This document shows positions 33,628-40,000 of a stretch of DNA of 40,000 nt, piece by piece. Position 1 is the first letter of the stretch, and each line of letters starts with the position of its first letter. The position numbers were made by a program, and so were the translations under genes. The DNA is from Megasphaera hexanoica. Lineage in GTDB: Bacteria; Bacillota; Negativicutes; Veillonellales; Megasphaeraceae. The stretch spans positions 1,057,941 to 1,097,940 of the forward strand of contig NZ_CP171361.1 in the NCBI RefSeq assembly GCF_043520715.1, written 5' to 3'. The notes beneath the pieces are model-generated. The model made no database searches and was not told the DNA's origin. It worked only from the letters and a program-made list of their open reading frames with translations.

Positions 33628-35190
33628 ATGATTTTAACAATGTATTATTCAGATCCTCCCATGACAGAGAAAGAAAAACAGGCACTGGAAGAAAAAAAGA
33701 AAAATGGCGAAAGCTATACAGAACCGGCAACGATGAAAGATATCACGCCATATGTGATTGATGTAGAGTGGAACGGCGATATTGACCAGGCGGCTCGAAA
33801 GCTGTCGTTTAAGCTTGCCTATAATACGGCGGTAAAAGATGTTAATTTCCCGGCCTTAATATTGAAGATGGGAGGCTTTATTTATGCCTATTATGAAGAT
33901 GATACACAACCCAAAGTCATGTTTTTTAGCGGCCGTATATTTTTTGAAAAACGAAATACGTCTGGATTTACATTTGAGTATGTAGCATATGATGACTTAA
34001 TTTACTTGGCAAAGTCAAAAATACAGCTTAATTTCCAGAACGTAACGATTACCGACGCAATAAAAACTATTTGCAGCGAAATAGGTATCGAAGTATCTGA
34101 GAGCATCCCGAGCCTGCCTACGGTGATTAACTATCTGGCAGATGGGAAAAGTTGTACAGAGATGTTTAAGATCTTTAATGAAAAGTCGAAAGCGGACACC
34201 ACGAATGGCAGCATTGAGTTTACTGTGCTATGCATTGAAGATAAAATAACTGCTGTGAAAAAAGGTGAGCTGATTGCTGATTACACGGCAACAGATGGGG
34301 TGAATATCGAACATACGGAACACAGTCAGTCTATTGAAGATATGGTGAACCGGATTAAAGCGGTCGATGACGTCGGCAATATATGCCAGGTATTTACCAT
34401 CAATGATGACGTAACGCATTATGGAATGATACAAGATATTTATAAGATGCAACCGGCCAAACAAGGAGAAAGCGTAGATAATGTCAAAGCAGCCAAAGCG
34501 ATGCTGAAACGGCTAAAAGAAGATAGCAGCCTTGAAGGCATTGGGAATATCCAATGTATCACCGGCTATGGGATAACCATTCAGGAAGAACAGTTAAAAG
34601 GCAATTTCTTTATTAAATCAGATGATCATAAATTTCAGAATAATGTACATACGATGTCACTGACACTGGAATATATGCCGGAAACAAAAGAAGAGCCGGA
34701 AATAGAACAGCAGGATCTTGCAGCGCCGGTATTCAAATCAGCATCACAGGGCCGGAAAAAGACGTACAATACAGCAACTGGGGGTGGCGATTTGAATATT
34801 TCCGCAGGTATGCAGGCCGGATGGAATGCATGGGGCTATCAGACTATGGATAATGGGACAGAAGGATGTTGTGAAGCGGCAACGAAAGTTGGGAGCTACT
34901 ACAGTCCGTTCCTTGCTGATGAATGTAATAATGGAGTTGTCAGTGTGCCGACATTGGTAGGCGATGCAAATGCCGCGGGCGTACCAGTTATAGATTTTGA
35001 TGCAAGCCAGTTGGAAGAAGGGGACTGCATTGTATATTACACCAGCGAAGGAGCTGATGGCCATGTCACGATTTACGATGGTAATGGCGGATATATTGGA
35101 AATAGCAGCAGTCAGAATATGGTAGTACACAGCGGCGATTATAGTGATTGTGGTACACCGATGCGAATTATTAAGACCTCACATTATTAA
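33628..35190 (+). CDS. Baseplate hub-position protein (XkdQ/gpD-like) with a C-terminal Cys-His papain-like (NlpC/P60- or CHAP-like) domain
   Basis: 520 aa. The last ~130 aa contain NGTEGCCEAATKV (candidate nucleophile Cys) and GDCIVYY..EGADGHVTIYDGNGGYIGNSS (candidate His), the usual layout of cell-wall cysteine peptidases. Confidence 0.6.
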   Translation: MILTMYYSDPPMTEKEKQALEEKKKNGESYTEPATMKDITPYVIDVEWNGDIDQAARKLSFKLAYNTAVKDVNFPALILKMGGFIYAYYEDDTQPKVMFFSGRIFFEKRNTSGFTFEYVAYDDLIYLAKSKIQLNFQNVTITDAIKTICSEIGIEVSESIPSLPTVINYLADGKSCTEMFKIFNEKSKADTTNGSIEFTVLCIEDKITAVKKGELIADYTATDGVNIEHTEHSQSIEDMVNRIKAVDDVGNICQVFTINDDVTHYGMIQDIYKMQPAKQGESVDNVKAAKAMLKRLKEDSSLEGIGNIQCITGYGITIQEEQLKGNFFIKSDDHKFQNNVHTMSLTLEYMPETKEEPEIEQQDLAAPVFKSASQGRKKTYNTATGGGDLNISAGMQAGWNAWGYQTMDNGTEGCCEAATKVGSYYSPFLADECNNGVVSVPTLVGDANAAGVPVIDFDASQLEEGDCIVYYTSEGADGHVTIYDGNGGYIGNSSSQNMVVHSGDYSDCGTPMRIIKTSHY

Positions 35191-35202
35191 GAGGGTGAAC
35201 AG

Positions 35203-35613
35203 ATGAAGAAAAATGAAGATCCATATAAGGGACTGTTGAATTTATTCCGAAAATTGACACAGCAGTCGATACAAAAAGGAACACGTATAGGTACTATCAT
35301 ATCGCCGCCGCCTGAAATAAAAGTACAATGCGACGGGATGATTTTAGATAAAACACGTTTGTACATTGATGAGTATTGGGTTCCGGGACACACCCGCCAT
35401 ATGGTAGGCGAAACTGATTTTAAAGGTGGAGGGTCTGGTGACGCTGCCTATGAGAGTCATAACCATCCCATTAATAATGATGAGTCTTTGACAGACACAT
35501 GGGCACCAGGAGATAAAGTATCCATGGAACCGGTCTATAGTGATGACGATAACATTAGCGGGCAGCAGTTTATAGTACATGCCAAACTACGGAGGTTTGA
35601 TGGGAATGGCTAA
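35203..35613 (+). CDS. Baseplate protein (XkdR-like)
   Basis: Synteny and size (136 aa). AGAGGGTGA RBS. Confidence 0.55.
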   Translation: MKKNEDPYKGLLNLFRKLTQQSIQKGTRIGTIISPPPEIKVQCDGMILDKTRLYIDEYWVPGHTRHMVGETDFKGGGSGDAAYESHNHPINNDESLTDTWAPGDKVSMEPVYSDDDNISGQQFIVHAKLRRFDGNG

Positions 35614-36040
35614 TCCGTTTATGACGGCGGGGACGTCTGCCATTGCAACGAAATCAGCAGCTCTGCCGGAGTTTAAAGAATTTGACTGGGATTTTGATAA
35701 GAATAAATTTTTATATGATGAATATGGGAACCATATCATAAGAACTAAAAACGAGGGTTTAAAGATTTGGATTAAGAAGGCTCTGTTGGTACAAAGATAC
35801 CGCTACAGAGCCTATTTTGATGATTATGGTTGTGAGATTGAAGATAAATTTATTGGCAAAACGCCAAATGATACGTTGTCAAAAAATGAACTATTTACTT
35901 ATATTTCAGAGGCGCTGCTAGTCAATCCATATATTAAGAACGTATATCTTGTCAGTACGGAACAGGAAAAGAAGAAAATTACCCTGGCGATTGACGTAAA
36001 AACAATATACGGAGAAACGACTGTAAAGATTGAGGTGTAA
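35606..36040 (+). CDS. Baseplate wedge protein (XkdS / gp25-W-like position)
   Basis: GGAGG at 35591-35595. Candidate ATG starts at 35600 and 35606; the ORF-track start at 35579 lies upstream of the RBS. Confidence 0.55.
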   Translation: MANPFMTAGTSAIATKSAALPEFKEFDWDFDKNKFLYDEYGNHIIRTKNEGLKIWIKKALLVQRYRYRAYFDDYGCEIEDKFIGKTPNDTLSKNELFTYISEALLVNPYIKNVYLVSTEQEKKKITLAIDVKTIYGETTVKIEV

Positions 36041-36042
36041 AA

Positions 36043-37116
36043 ATGTTTGAAGCAAAAACACAGGAATCTATACAATCAGAATTAAAAACAATCTATGAGA
36101 AAGAATTAAACGGGCAGGTATCAACCATCGAAGGGACATTCATTGGCGATAACTTAGCGGCTAATGCTGTAGAGTTTGAAAAAAGCTATGCTGAAATGTC
36201 ATTGATTGTCGATGCGGCTTTTGCTCAAACCTCATGGGGGCAGTATTTAACAATGAGGGCCGCCGAATTTGGCATTGACCGCAAAGAAGCGGTAAAAGCA
36301 AAAGGGATAGTAACAGTAACCGGGACAGGCGTCGTTAATAGCGGCGCTATTTTTAGTACAGACGGCGGAATACAATTCCAGGCAGTAAATACAACGACTA
36401 TAAATGGCACAGCGGACATCAATGTTGAAGCTGTGGAAGCCGGCGAAAAAGGGAATGTTGCGGCGGGAACTGTCGTGAAAATACCAGTAACTATTACTGG
36501 CATATCATCCGTCACGAATGAAAAAGCTATGAGTGACGGATATGATGCGGAAACGGATGCGTCATTGTTAAGCCGGCTGTTGTTACATGTCCGCAATCCG
36601 ATTACATCTGGAAACGCTAACCACTATAGGGAGTGGACACTATCAGTAGCTGGTGTTGGAAATTGTCAGGTCATCCCGTTATGGAACGGGAATGGAACTG
36701 TCAAAGTATCCATCATAGATGAAAATAAAGACATTGCCAGCACGAATCTGATAAATCAAGTAGCCGCATATTTAGATACAGTTAAGCCGATAGGCGCAAC
36801 TGTAACAGTATCGACGCCAACATATTTAGATGTCACTGTATCAGCCCGGGTTAGAGTAGTTACAGCCTATAAAGACACTTATAAAGAGGTACTAAAAAAG
36901 GCGATTAATGACTATTTGATTGATGAAGGCTTTTCAAGTGATTATATAACAGCGTCTTCGATTATCAGTATTGCTAAAATCGGGCAAATTATGCTGGCAA
37001 CGGGGGTGATATCAGACTATGACGAATTGAAGCTGAACGGAGATATCCAATACATTACTATTGCCGCTGAAAAATTACCACGGCTAAGCACACTGGAGGT
37101 GACAGAACTTGAATAG
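36043..37116 (+). CDS. Baseplate J-like protein (XkdT-like)
   Basis: 357 aa. Typical size and position. GAGGTG RBS. Confidence 0.75.
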   Translation: MFEAKTQESIQSELKTIYEKELNGQVSTIEGTFIGDNLAANAVEFEKSYAEMSLIVDAAFAQTSWGQYLTMRAAEFGIDRKEAVKAKGIVTVTGTGVVNSGAIFSTDGGIQFQAVNTTTINGTADINVEAVEAGEKGNVAAGTVVKIPVTITGISSVTNEKAMSDGYDAETDASLLSRLLLHVRNPITSGNANHYREWTLSVAGVGNCQVIPLWNGNGTVKVSIIDENKDIASTNLINQVAAYLDTVKPIGATVTVSTPTYLDVTVSARVRVVTAYKDTYKEVLKKAINDYLIDEGFSSDYITASSIISIAKIGQIMLATGVISDYDELKLNGDIQYITIAAEKLPRLSTLEVTELE

Positions 37117-37750
37117 CTTTATCCGTAAGGGGAAAGTAGACCTATCAAAATATTTACCGGAATACCTTGTAAAAGATTCCATATTTTCAGCGATGCTAAA
37201 AGCCGAATCCCAGGGGCATGAATTGCAAAGAGCTGATATGGAAAAACTATTGGAGCAATTTTTTGTAGAGACGGCAACGGATGCCCTTGAAAACTGGGAG
37301 ACGTTCCTTGGTATTGATGTCAATAAAAATCTTAGGAATGAAGATAGACGCAATAGAATTTTAGCCAAAATAAAAGGAACGCAGACAGTAACTATTAATT
37401 TTATGACAAGGTTGGTTAACACGTATATAGCCGATGGAAAAGCGGAAGTCGCAGACCTGCCAAAGGATTATGCAATAAAGATTTACTACCATGGTGGACA
37501 AGTTACAGATTATGGCAAACTTCACCATGCAATAAAAACGTATATACCGGCTCATATTGGCTATAAGCTATCAACGATTACCAGGGTAAAGCGACAGCTT
37601 CACTGCAGCGCGAGAATCAGGGAACACAATGTAATAAAAATAAAAACGCGCACAGATGCAAGCACGTCAGTACAGCCAGGTACATTACATGTAAAGATGA
37701 AAATAATTCATTCTTATTCCCAGATAAAAATTAGGGGGGGTATTAACTAA
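37109..37750 (+). CDS. Tail protein XkdU/YmfQ-like (DUF2313-like)
   Basis: YLPEYL......F.A.L.AE..E........LL.Q.F..TA...L..WE..LGI is family-typical. TTG start after GGAGGTG. Confidence 0.7.
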   Translation: MNSFIRKGKVDLSKYLPEYLVKDSIFSAMLKAESQGHELQRADMEKLLEQFFVETATDALENWETFLGIDVNKNLRNEDRRNRILAKIKGTQTVTINFMTRLVNTYIADGKAEVADLPKDYAIKIYYHGGQVTDYGKLHHAIKTYIPAHIGYKLSTITRVKRQLHCSARIREHNVIKIKTRTDASTSVQPGTLHVKMKIIHSYSQIKIRGGIN

Positions 37751-38727
37751 TGGCACAGTTTCCAGATATGACACCGACAACTAACGGCGACAAAATGTTA
37801 ATCCAAGCAGTAAACGGACATAAATTAGTTTTCACCCGCGGCGCATTCGGCAGCGGGTCATTATCTGATAGTGATGATATCAAAACATTTACGGCATTAA
37901 AAAGTGAAAAGATGTCATTGCCAATTGTAGATACCACAGTATCTGATACAGGCGAAAAAATCACATTGACTTTTAATTGCAGCAATAGCAGCCTGGACAC
38001 AGGCTTCATCAACCGCGAAGTAGGCGTATTTGCAAAGCTCGACGATGGTGATGAAGTATTATATAGCTATTCAAATGCTGGGATGGCCTATGACTATATT
38101 CCGTCAAATGAAACGCCGACTAATGAAAACACTTTTGAAATCGAAGTATATATTAGCTCTGAAGCGGAAATCAACGTTACCATTGACGGATCTATCGTAT
38201 ATCTGACAAAAGAACAGGTAGAAGAAAAAATAGATAATCATGACAAAACAACGACGGCCCACGGGCAAGCCTTCGCGGCGCACAATGACGATGAAACCGC
38301 CCATAGCAAACTGTTCGGACTATGCGAAAAAATAGCCGATTTGGGCGATGACATCATAAAAAAACTGGCATTAACAACAACCATTACAGCAATCACCGCG
38401 CTGACAACGGATAGCTGGTTTGGGCAATTACTGAAGCTGGTACTTACAGCATCCGGGGTGAAGTATTTAGCAGCACAAAATGGATATCTCTGCCTAGGGA
38501 GCTTTTTTGGAAATATAATTATACAGTGGGGAGTTTATGGCCGTGCAGATTTGGGAGTAACTTTCCCGCTTGCATTTAACCAATTGTTTGCAGTCGTGCC
38601 TGCCTGGGCTGGAGGCGGTACGGAGCAATCATATGCATGGACAATTGCGAATGAATCATCATCTGGCTTTTCCGTATATCGGCAAGGCGGAAGCATCGGC
38701 GTTTATTACATCGCAATAGGCAAGTAG
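37750..38727 (+). CDS. Tail fibre protein (expressed copy) with a tail-collar-like N-terminus and a C-terminal QWG...YYIAIGK domain
   Basis: N-terminus ...TTNGDKMLIQAVNGHKLVFTRGAFGSG resembles the fibre collar domain. The last 67 aa start at IIQWG (core ACAGTGGGGA at 38523-38532) and resemble gp53-like C-terminal fibre domains. Confidence 0.85.
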   Translation: MAQFPDMTPTTNGDKMLIQAVNGHKLVFTRGAFGSGSLSDSDDIKTFTALKSEKMSLPIVDTTVSDTGEKITLTFNCSNSSLDTGFINREVGVFAKLDDGDEVLYSYSNAGMAYDYIPSNETPTNENTFEIEVYISSEAEINVTIDGSIVYLTKEQVEEKIDNHDKTTTAHGQAFAAHNDDETAHSKLFGLCEKIADLGDDIIKKLALTTTITAITALTTDSWFGQLLKLVLTASGVKYLAAQNGYLCLGSFFGNIIIQWGVYGRADLGVTFPLAFNQLFAVVPAWAGGGTEQSYAWTIANESSSGFSVYRQGGSIGVYYIAIGK

Positions 38728-38728
38728 A

Positions 38729-38950
38729 CAGTGGATAAAAGGACAAGGTATAGAAGTAAAATGCACTTACCCTCTGGCAATGATGCAGTTTTTTACAGCG
38801 ACCGCTGTGCATCTTGACAACTCGCCAGATATTGATCATGACAGGACGACAATGTTTCAGATTCATGCTCCGTCAAATACTTCTTTAACGATTGCATCAC
38901 AAGCAGCATCTGGGGACCCAGAGTTTTTGGTTTTGATAATCGGAAGGTAA
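38729..38950 (+). other. Silent tail-fibre C-terminal cassette 1 (73 aa, QWIKGQGIEVKCTYPLAM...EFLVLIIGR*)
   Basis: Open frame from the core to the TAA, with no ATG or RBS. It has the same QWx...[FY]P[LI]..........I[AI]xG-stop layout as the expressed C-terminus. It is in the +1 frame relative to the fibre gene. Confidence 0.75.
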
Positions 38951-38951
38951 A

Positions 38952-39170
38952 CAGTGGGGAAGATATAGCTTGAGCAATTCCGGTGGCGGATGGGTTACAT
39001 TCCCCATTTCTTTTTATAATACCCAATATGTTATAAATACTACTCATTACAACAGTCTTTCATCAAGAATAGATATATACTTAGAAATATCTTATTTGAA
39101 TACAAGCCAGTGCTACATACGCTCATCGATAGACTCTGCTGAAGTTTACGTAATAGCAATGGGATACTAA
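38952..39170 (+). other. Silent tail-fibre C-terminal cassette 2 (72 aa, QWGRYSLSNSGGGWVTFPISF...VYVIAMGY*)
   Basis: As for cassette 1. It is the closest match to the gp53-like pattern (QWG...VTFPI.F...IAxGY). Confidence 0.8.
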
Positions 39171-39207
39171 ACAGTGGGGAATTAGTGATGTGATAAAACT
39201 TGTAAAG

Positions 39208-39444
39208 CTATTTGACATACCCGAGTACAATCCACTCACAAGGAATATTATCATTGCTACTGTCAGTGTCTAACAAAAAGAATTTACCGTTTTTCTTTAT
39301 GAATCTGACATATATATCGTCGTTTACTTCGCTAGACACTTGACTTAATCCAATTAATACTTTATCCATGACAATTGGGTATTTTATATAATAACTCGCA
39401 TTATTTGTGTCCGGATCTGAATATCCATATCCGTTTCCCCACTG
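39208..39444 (-). other. Silent tail-fibre C-terminal cassette 3, inverted (78 aa, QWGNGYGYSDPDTNNASYYIKYPIVM...EWIVLGYVK*)
   Basis: Read on the minus strand from the inverted core (39436-39445) to the stop at 39208-39210. AT-rich relative to the expressed cassette. Confidence 0.75.
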
Positions 39445-39449
39445 TTCAA

Positions 39450-39650
39450 CAGTGGGTAGTTCTGAGCATGACTAATAGAACAAGCTTCACTATTACAACC
39501 CCAATTGCTTTTAGTAGGTGCTTGGCTGGCGTTGTATCTGATTATGGTGATGCACGGCTTTCATTTGGATTCAACCATGATAAGCTTGTCTGCTATGGTC
39601 CAGGTCTATCCACCCCTACAACTTGCAATATTATCATGATTGGTATTTAG
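39450..39650 (+). other. Silent tail-fibre C-terminal cassette 4 (66 aa, QWVVLSMTNRTSFTITTPIAF...CNIIMIGI*)
   Basis: Open frame from the degenerate core to the TAG. The track ORF 39375-39650 is an artefactual upstream extension of it. Confidence 0.75.
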
Positions 39651-39651
39651 A

Positions 39652-39831
39652 CAGTGGGGATATGGCAACGAGGCTATGCCACTTAACCTGCCTTTATCGG
39701 CAGCGATATTAAGTATTGTCGGGATGCACGAAGGCACCACTAAACAAGTTGTGACTTACTCGGCAAGGCAAAATAAATGGATTGGAGACGACTCGGAATT
39801 AGCCCTACTATACATTGCTCTCTGTAAATAG
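39652..39831 (+). other. Silent tail-fibre C-terminal cassette 5 (59 aa, QWGYGNEAMPLNLPLSA...LALLYIALCK*)
   Basis: Open frame from the core to the TAG; no start codon at the core. Confidence 0.7.
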
Positions 39832-39832
39832 A

Positions 39833-40000
39833 CAGTGGGGAAGTCAGCAGTCTGGCAACAACTGGCAAGTATACTATCCCATGGTTTTCAACAGCGCAGT
39901 ATACGGCGTCTGGATCATTGATTACGCCGCAAAGACTAATAATTTACAGTATGCTGGCGTAGGCGAGTCAGAAAGTGGGCTAAATGGATTTAAGATGTAT
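39833..40000 (+). other. Silent tail-fibre C-terminal cassette 6 (partial, QWGSQQSGNNWQVYYPMVF...), truncated by the window end
   Basis: Open frame from the core at 39832-39841 to the window end. Confidence 0.7.

Follow-up and report, generated by a model that had tools for sequence, protein, structure and literature searches.

How can a prophage with one tail-fibre gene hold, directly behind that gene, a row of short reading frames that all begin with the same few nucleotides, and what are those frames for? The locus that raises this question lies in a 40,000-nucleotide (nt) stretch of the Megasphaera hexanoica chromosome (contig NZ_CP171361.1, positions 1,057,941 to 1,097,940), hereafter the window. 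A reading made from the DNA letters alone (the sequence-only reading) had proposed that the frames are silent receptor-binding-domain cassettes that are swapped onto the expressed C-terminus of the fibre by recombination at a shared core, a proposal that related sequences supported. We consider it highly probable that the locus is a multiple-inversion shufflon that changes the C-terminal domain of the tail fibre and is driven by a tyrosine recombinase; the comparisons indicate that this shufflon is real and very probably active. Seen directly were the anatomy of the array, the conservation of its sites as DNA, the adjacency of a recombinase gene in relatives, inversion isomers, and silent cassettes that are expressed elsewhere. 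The relatives are about 40 loci (L numbers), gathered by scans of viral contigs and metagenomes and by exact-protein look-ups.

The fibre gene, its cassettes and the crossover site

The features of the fibre gene and array are as follows (aa, amino acids; ORF, open reading frame).

37750-38727, + strand: whole tail-fibre gene, 325 aa
37750..38522, + strand: constant part of the fibre gene, residues 1-258, an ORF with the Pfam Phage_tail_fib N-terminal domain and matches to PHROG tail-fibre families
38520..38532, + strand: crossover site of the expression site, TATACAGTGGGGA, in frame and reading Ile-Gln-Trp-Gly
38523..38727, + strand: cassette C0, now expressed, 67 codons plus stop, with Pfam Gp53-like_C over residues 256-324
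38728..38950, + strand: silent cassette C1, core ACAGTGGATA, 73 codons plus stop
38951..39170, + strand: silent cassette C2, 72 codons plus stop, passing the Pfam cut-off for Gp53-like_C
39171..39202, + strand: core and 31-nt stub of cassette G, the left border of an invertible one-cassette segment
39208..39445, - strand: silent inverted cassette H, core 39436-39445, 78 codons from 39444, stop 39208-39210
39436..39458: head-to-head double site TCCCCACTGT-TCA-ACAGTGGGTA, from which H (- strand) and C4 (+ strand) diverge
39449..39650, + strand: silent cassette C4, core ACAGTGGGTA, 66 codons plus stop, weak Gp53-like_C match
39651..39831, + strand: silent cassette C5, 59 codons plus stop
39832..40000, + strand: silent cassette C6, cut by the window end, with 56 codons present and 72 in relatives

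In total, the window holds seven cassettes, all of them open frames, and one stub. The sequence-only reading had counted at least seven cassettes at 38523-40000 and described every interval as one open frame of 59-78 codons. The array is real and the description fits the seven cassettes, but the site at 39171 heads only the stub: its frame has 33 codons, and within that interval only 39172-39202 derives from a cassette (the head of G), the remainder being the inverted cassette H. Eight sites are present, seven direct and one inverted, and each stop codon abuts the next core, every cassette being shifted +1 in frame relative to the stop before it. Exact + strand cores start at 38523, 38951, 39171, 39651 and 39832, and the exact - strand core occupies 39436-39445. 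The claim that one core recurs after every stop has to be narrowed at 38728 (ACAGTGGATA, with …GGATA) and 39449 (ACAGTGGGTA, with …GGGTA), which are variants that have only the 7-base-pair (bp) ACAGTGG in common. Allowing up to one mismatch, ACAGTGGGGA occurred 9 times in the window against 1.74 expected, a count that none of 100 shuffles reached, and 7 of the 9 copies fell in 38523-39841. The cassettes also differ in base composition, as had been stated, the GC fraction being 0.49 in C0 and 0.34 in the segment of stub and H.

Among relatives, the constant part was 84-100% identical in nucleotides only as far as the core, where similarity stopped. The left flank of the expression site, AATTATA-CAGTGG, did not change in relatives whose nt identity was only 63%, nor in three further fibre backbones. 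The stub of G matched L009 11612-11644 at 100% identity; the window has lost the 221 nt of G that come next, and the cassette is whole in L009 and L037. The head-to-head junction of H and C4 recurred in L009 (11608/11614) and L017 (13143/13149). The largest array, at L010 10775-14007, packed 14 cassettes (3 direct, 11 inverted) into 3.2 kilobases (kb) and was followed by the recombinase gene.

The sequences indicate that the core is kept as DNA and not merely as protein, as the sequence-only reading had argued from its constancy at synonymous positions, with CAG and GGA fixed. In the phage genes, GGA supplied 58 of 315 Gly codons (18%) and CAA supplied 52 of 140 Gln codons (37%); the only in-frame CAATGG inside a cassette was an internal Gln-Trp, not a cassette head. 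Arrays from 22 loci, 21.7 kb in all, contained 109 copies of ACAGTGG compared with 2 expected from composition. They were tiled end to end by core-headed cassettes, and 95 of the 104 sites not cut by contig ends headed frames of at least 55 codons, as against 6.8% of random positions. The consensus site heading each cassette was T-A-N-ACAGTGG-G-G/T-A. Over 60 distinct cassette heads, the base after TGG-NN was A in 58, whether the codon specified Gly, Val, Ile or Leu, and the T and A at -3 and -2 were also conserved; these two bases form the start of the prior stop codon in silent sites and part of Ile codons in the expression site. According to the site logo, conservation was limited to -3 to +10 around ACAGTGG, the flanks beyond carrying no information, and the site had neither a 12-bp arm nor a 26-bp dyad symmetry.

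Rearrangement of the cassettes and the array-linked recombinase

Four loci, L006, L007, L008 and L009, had a 100% identical constant part and cassettes in common at 99.3-100% identity. They differed in cassette order and orientation, and four different cassettes of the one set were expressed. One inversion, of the DNA between the expression site and an inverted core, converts L007 into L008: the 100% identical constant part was followed by 475 nt that were 99.8% identical in reverse complement, and the strand switches of the alignment overlapped cores. The same was found for L006 and L009. The flanks to the left of ACAGTGG (ata, aga, aaa) re-assorted with those to its right (GGA, GTA, ATA, TTA), which places strand exchange inside those 7 bp. 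All 12 loci that reached the far end of the array had an expression site on the + strand and a terminal site on the - strand, and opposed outermost sites are an invariant of an inversion system. A search of configurations put H one inversion away from expression and the other in-window cassettes two inversions away.

Other comparisons also ended at the core. Contigs whose Baseplate J protein is identical to that of the window had other tips on their fibres, which were 324, 331 and 338 aa long, and the M. elsdenii isolate genomes L040 and L041, which were 100% and 99.98% identical around the array, expressed different cassettes. L016/L020 were 100% identical to window 37750-38529 and then continued into ATAAAAGGACAAGGTA, the head of C1. 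At least six independent assemblies (L005, L016/L020, L019, L021, L026 and L042) broke 9-29 nt past the constant core, as would be expected where one unique left flank branches into several right flanks per sample.

Silent cassettes of the window were found expressed in relatives. A protein search with the concatenated silent cassettes returned full-length fibres (P numbers) that end in C1, C2, H, C4 or C6 at 75-99% identity, and the expressed copies were always joined at (L/I)IIQW. C1 was the expressed tip of P0004, P0008, P0016 and P0019; C2 that of P0005 and of P0007, a 601-aa fibre from 'uncultured Megasphaera sp.'; C4 that of P0006; and C6 that of P0018, C6 being 89% nt-identical to L017, L022, L034 and L035. 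H was 99% aa-identical to the tip of P0001. The cassette now expressed in the window, C0, had an 86% identical copy in a silent position of L015. C5 had a silent homologue in L013 at 11500 on the - strand and no expressed copy among the relatives searched.

The crossover site splits the fibre gene into a constant part (residues 1-258) and a Gp53-like_C-type tip of 59-90 codons, and promoterless alternative tips lie downstream, each running from the same site to a stop codon that abuts the next site. In the mechanism that we propose, a tyrosine recombinase gene would lie just past the far end of the array, which here means beyond 40000, where the array would finish with a terminal inverted site whose left flank resembles TTGATATAGTAAA. 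The recombinase would exchange strands within ACAGTGG of two opposed sites, the intervening DNA would invert, and inversion between the expression site and any inverted site would fuse a new tip in frame. Because the expression site points one way and the terminal site the other, such a system could never lock. Rarer recombination between direct sites or between molecules would add, delete and exchange cassettes, also between phages.

Some of the same comparisons bear on another reading, in which the cassettes switch chiefly by deletional or intermolecular events at direct repeats, so that excision and not inversion uses up or reshuffles the array. Of the eight sites in the window, seven are direct, and the junction of the constant part (Sc) with C1 in L016 is the expected product of the loss of C0, although two inversions could also have given it. 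L009 was without cassette D, which is present in L008, and the gap lay exactly between two cores; stubs or fused cassettes occurred at window 39171, in L034 and in L001. However, arrays of up to 14 cassettes persist, isomers exist that have equal cassette content in different orientations, and the outermost sites were always mutually inverted, which is the design of an inversion system. We regard deletion as the main mode to be quite improbable.

Several loci nevertheless recorded events beyond simple inversion. Compared with L040 12481-13321, L041 12481-13523 had an extra 202-bp copy of a QWGSNRYGW cassette at its expression site; L041 (M. elsdenii KK211366.1) also kept a silent inverted copy of this cassette, and L040 had only the silent copy. 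At L001 6087-6566, TTA replaced a TAA stop codon and the cassette read into the next one, giving a two-domain tip of 159 aa. An 11-codon stub was fused in frame to the next core at L034 8634-8667. Together with L009 and the stub of G in the window, these cases fit occasional direct-site or intermolecular recombination; some of the irregular arrangements could instead be mis-assemblies of mixed populations. The L041 duplication is either intermolecular site-specific recombination or such a mis-assembly, and its arrangement is what one inversion and a later crossover of two isomers at direct cores would give.

L041 is also the case that would speak for non-reciprocal gene conversion in which the donor is kept, as in pilE/pilS or vlsE, since QWGSNRYGW stands at both the expression site and a silent position between flanks that are 100% and 99.98% identical to those of L040. 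That arrangement is explicable by inversion plus crossover, or by mis-assembly, and the other comparisons were reciprocal: blocks flipped and flanks were swapped without loss or gain. Moreover, the roughly 13 bp common to the cassettes are too short for homologous recombination, and the arrays of three phage lineages come with a linked site-specific recombinase. We give gene conversion scarcely any credence. The sequence-only reading had listed multi-step inversion with an Rci-like recombinase, gene conversion and deletional switching as possible mechanisms; the first agrees with the relatives, which have inverted sites, a tyrosine recombinase and core-bounded isomers, and the other two are at most side reactions.

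A recombinase near the array, which that reading had suggested looking for, was found in the relatives. An ORF of 341-349 aa lay directly after the array in every relative with enough sequence, L011 excepted, usually on the opposite strand; it followed the last site directly in 11 loci (L002, L008, L009, L010, L013, L014, L034, L035, L037, L040 and L041). It matched Pfam Phage_integrase (E=2e-21) with a SAM-like N-terminal domain, and it was followed by a gene of about 157 aa, a holin and an amidase. The array-linked recombinases, present in three phage lineages, were 56-96% identical to each other, with invariant residues at TGxR, HxxR, GH and VYTH that fit the active site of a tyrosine recombinase. 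This enzyme would presumably be the catalyst of the inversions. The prophage integrase is another protein: a large serine recombinase at the prophage end in the window and in L035, and a second tyrosine enzyme, of 398 aa, at the border of L037. A small serine invertase (Resolvase, about 190 aa) was not adjacent to the array in relatives, where the tyrosine recombinase stood instead.

About 85 residues precede the SAM-like domain of the recombinase, and Pfam gave no family match for them; a DNA-binding domain of the arm type was considered for this part and dropped, being unsupported by Pfam. NCBIfam returned no specific invertase family and no match specific to Rci, only generic Xer/integrase models that were all far below their cut-offs, and the PHROG match was phrog_1, 'integrase'. 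The best phage matches (about 32%), in Butyrivibrio phage Arawn and Fusobacterium phage Funu2, were rejected as evidence of shufflons in those phages: they are annotated or placed as ordinary integrases in lysogeny modules, and no fibre gene adjoins them. Some arrays look frozen. L011 11695-14474 is an array without the recombinase and holin region and with an insertion sequence (IS) transposase nearby, and in L003/L012 11499-12507 the recombinase is divergent (40% identical), in the opposite orientation and frameshifted, and the arrays are identical.

Such loci raise the possibility that the array of this genome is a relic that no longer switches, for example because its recombinase is lost or broken. 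The L011 array with its IS transposase and the frameshifted recombinases of L003 and L012 speak for this, as do the deleted cassette stub in the window and the fact that the window's recombinase region lies outside it. Yet all seven in-window cassettes are open, a contig that is 100% identical over the constant part has another junction, and the core is where a number of assemblies of this phage end. Furthermore, L017, whose Baseplate J is identical to that of the window, has an array that ends with an inverted site, and the 158 nt after this terminal site were 100% identical to the gap between terminal site and recombinase in L002 and L040. Because L017 runs into recombinase-proximal sequence, the window array most likely continues past 40000 as L017 does. 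A frozen relic is, in our judgment, very unlikely.

Several points weigh against a shufflon driven by inversion, in addition to the L016 junction. The inversion isomers come from different assemblies, not from one culture. The recombinase and the rest of the array lie outside the window, and their position after 40000 is taken from the relatives. The conserved site is only about 13 bp long, with no visible second binding arm, and the L041 duplication and the L009 cassette loss cannot come from inversion alone. The part of the reading that concerns receptor binding by the tips rests on their position and one Pfam family.

Tip domains, cassette sharing and the prophage

The Pfam threshold for Gp53-like_C was passed by C0, C2 and full-length C6; H and C4 matched weakly, and C1 and C5 matched no Pfam family. 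The Gp53-like_C domain starts three residues before Gln-Trp, which puts the crossover site at a domain boundary. We infer that the tips bind receptors, because they are distal in the fibre and extremely divergent, and that switching alters host range. An AlphaFold2 model of the fibre, for which 13 sequences were aligned, could not be used (mean predicted local distance difference test score, pLDDT, 36), and a sequence search of PDB gave chance matches only.

The sequence-only reading had named decay of the downstream frames as a check, and the silent frames proved intact in relatives: homologous cassette pairs had no frameshifts and no stops. The ratio of non-synonymous to synonymous substitution rates (dN/dS) was 1.5-3.3 in C1 and C2, with lower values, 0.17-0.44, in C0, C6 and H; since substitutions were few, these values were taken only as no sign of decay. 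Compared with L010, L034 and L039, C1 and C2 (window 38728-39170) differed mostly by non-synonymous changes. The ratios hint at possible diversifying selection on some tips, the counts being small.

The cassette tail ATTGGnAAnTAGA was conserved in many loci (L002 11183-11195, window 39640-39651). Read in the frame of the next cassette, it is TTG-GGn-AAn-AGA just before Gln-Trp, and gene callers consequently annotate silent cassettes as small stand-alone genes. Loci of this kind break short-read assemblies, their fibre genes are mis-annotated as many small hypothetical genes, and one assembled fibre is an unreliable basis for predicting host range.

Four constant parts, one of which belongs to the 601-aa fibre, were found with one and the same ATTATA-CAGTGG expression site, with recombinases of a single family and with overlapping sets of cassettes in at least three Megasphaera prophage lineages. 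Two of these lineages, the window type and one related to it, encode a Mu Gp48-like baseplate protein, and another is P2-like and encodes GpU, GpW and Tail_P2_I; except in the fibre 3' end and the cassettes, nucleotide similarity between the lineages was not detectable. In nucleotides, H (window 39203-39445) and the cassette that the P2-like prophage L037/L038 expresses (L037 7786-8028) were 99.2% identical. Nothing besides H in window 34000-40000 resembled the P2-like prophage, and the similarity ended at the cores. The G/H segment between two inverted cores was shared as a unit. On this evidence, cassettes or core-bounded segments evidently pass between unrelated phages, and the identity of H appears to indicate a recent transfer of this kind.

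A wider idea, which we put forward as tentative and rate as somewhat doubtful, is that the core and recombinase form a genus-wide platform that exchanges core-bounded segments between co-resident or co-infecting phages in an integron-like manner, in place of a closed switch, and also, by unequal intermolecular recombination, grows arrays to as many as the 14 cassettes of L010 and yields duplications like that of L041. It is plausible that such exchange occurs in trans, as a natural form of recombinase-mediated cassette exchange. If confirmed, the shared cassette pool would be a new route of modular receptor-binding-domain exchange. The core and cassette pool common to unrelated phages is the feature most worth pursuing.

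The window is bacterial chromosome, with a ribosomal RNA (rRNA) operon and four transfer RNAs (tRNAs) at 330-5600. Next to the operon comes the prophage, which has at its left end a large serine recombinase of 517 aa (5589-7142, - strand). This is the exact protein of Megasphaera hexanoica and the only Resolvase-domain protein in the window, lying 31 kb from the array. The 3' end of its gene overlaps the tRNA at 5526-5599, just downstream of the rRNA operon, which suggests that the prophage integrated at or adjoining this tRNA. Going rightwards, the late genes encode sheath, tube, tape measure, Baseplate_J, a Mu Gp48-like protein and the tail fibre, the two before the fibre being:

36043-37116: Baseplate_J, late gene of the window prophage
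37109-37750: Mu Gp48-like protein, late gene just before the tail fibre

These two proteins were exact matches to M. hexanoica AXB80872.1 and AXB80871.1, respectively, and exact-protein look-ups also found near-identical prophages in M. elsdenii and Megasphaera sp. A collection of sequenced phages contained no DNA match to the locus, and its matches to the fibre were N-terminal only and below 35% identity.

Tail-fibre tips decide which bacteria a phage attaches to. With 8 to 14 ready-made tips that are reshuffled, a phage could produce mixed virions that track variation of the host surface or reach other strains. Megasphaera matters in the rumen, in the gut and in industrial chain elongation, and few of its phages have been studied. 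A compact tyrosine invertase that acts on a site of about 13 bp, with more than 10 sites, could also serve synthetic shuffling devices.

Comparison with known systems

Literature searches returned no description of a shufflon in phages of Megasphaera or other Negativicutes. The Rin shufflon of Bifidobacterium breve and B. longum prophages has a constant part, Rc, tandem Rv cassettes, an 11-bp asymmetric site, rix, that occurs within the gene and again behind it, and, last in the row, a tyrosine invertase; isomers were seen between prophage and virion (PMC6109161); Rin was later reported in Eggerthella lenta prophages (PMC8778435). Both systems have a gene for a receptor-binding protein (RBP) or fibre with a constant N-terminal part, followed by small, mostly tandem, promoterless and divergent C-terminal cassettes. 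Both have a short asymmetric repeat per cassette (11 bp in Rin, about 13 bp in Megasphaera), one copy in the gene and one after its stop, as well as a tyrosine recombinase at the far end of the array, and isomers between prophage and virion (Rin) or between genomes (Megasphaera). The sequence-only reading had set the locus apart from known systems by its head-to-tail direct cassettes; this contrast was overstated, since that is the layout of Rin (PMC6109161), and seven direct sites out of eight is simply one isomer of a shufflon-type system.

The differences from Rin begin with the repeat, which is TTCCCTAACCC in Rin and TANACAGTGGGGA in Megasphaera, so the two do not have the same rix. The host of Rin belongs to the Actinobacteria and that of the Megasphaera system to the Negativicutes, and the RBP of Rin is TP901-1/1358-like, whereas the Megasphaera prophage has a contractile tail with Baseplate_J and a Mu Gp48-like protein. 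The Megasphaera tip domain is Gp53-like_C, and Megasphaera arrays reach 14 cassettes, compared with 5 in Rin. The Rin recombinase was described without an extra N-terminal domain, unlike the Megasphaera enzymes with their approximately 85 residues before the SAM-like domain, the recombinases being compared by description.

BV01-like Phocaeicola phages carry a three-cassette tail-fibre shufflon of which all configurations were seen in reads (PMC13596623, preprint). As in Megasphaera, a recombinase-flanked block overlaps the distal end of the fibre gene, has directional motifs (10 bp there) and picks the tip by inversion. In contrast, the BV01-like system has three cassettes and six variants, the motif TGGGAGAACT and a Bacteroidota host, and its cassette order shifts the position of the stop codon, whereas Megasphaera swaps discrete, equally sized domains. 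The logo of the Megasphaera site shows it to resemble the 11-bp rix and the 10-bp BV01 motif in being short and asymmetric.

The R64/IncI shufflon (Rci, sfx, pilV) likewise uses a tyrosine recombinase, asymmetric sites, a 7-bp invariant crossover region and multiple inversions to select the C-terminus of an adhesin, and some of its segments with inverted sites hold two convergent cassettes, as may be compared with G/H. Its target, however, is the tip of a conjugative pilus (pilV), while in Megasphaera it is the fibre encoded after the Baseplate_J and Mu Gp48-like genes. The sfx sites have a conserved 12-bp arm. This arm is absent from the Megasphaera site, and most Megasphaera cassettes are single tandem units between direct sites.

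In Gin (Mu), Cin (P1), Min (p15B) and Pin (e14), site-specific inversion at a site within the gene also picks the C-terminus of a fibre, Min having several sites; purpose is all that the Megasphaera system has in common with them. These enzymes are small serine invertases with 26-bp quasi-symmetric sites and a Fis-dependent enhancer, whereas Megasphaera relatives have a tyrosine recombinase linked to the array, and the Megasphaera site is short and lacks symmetry. The 14 cassettes of L010 exceed the counts in the compared systems. Taken together, these likenesses and differences make the Megasphaera locus a new example of the known phage tail-fibre shufflon type, not a new kind.

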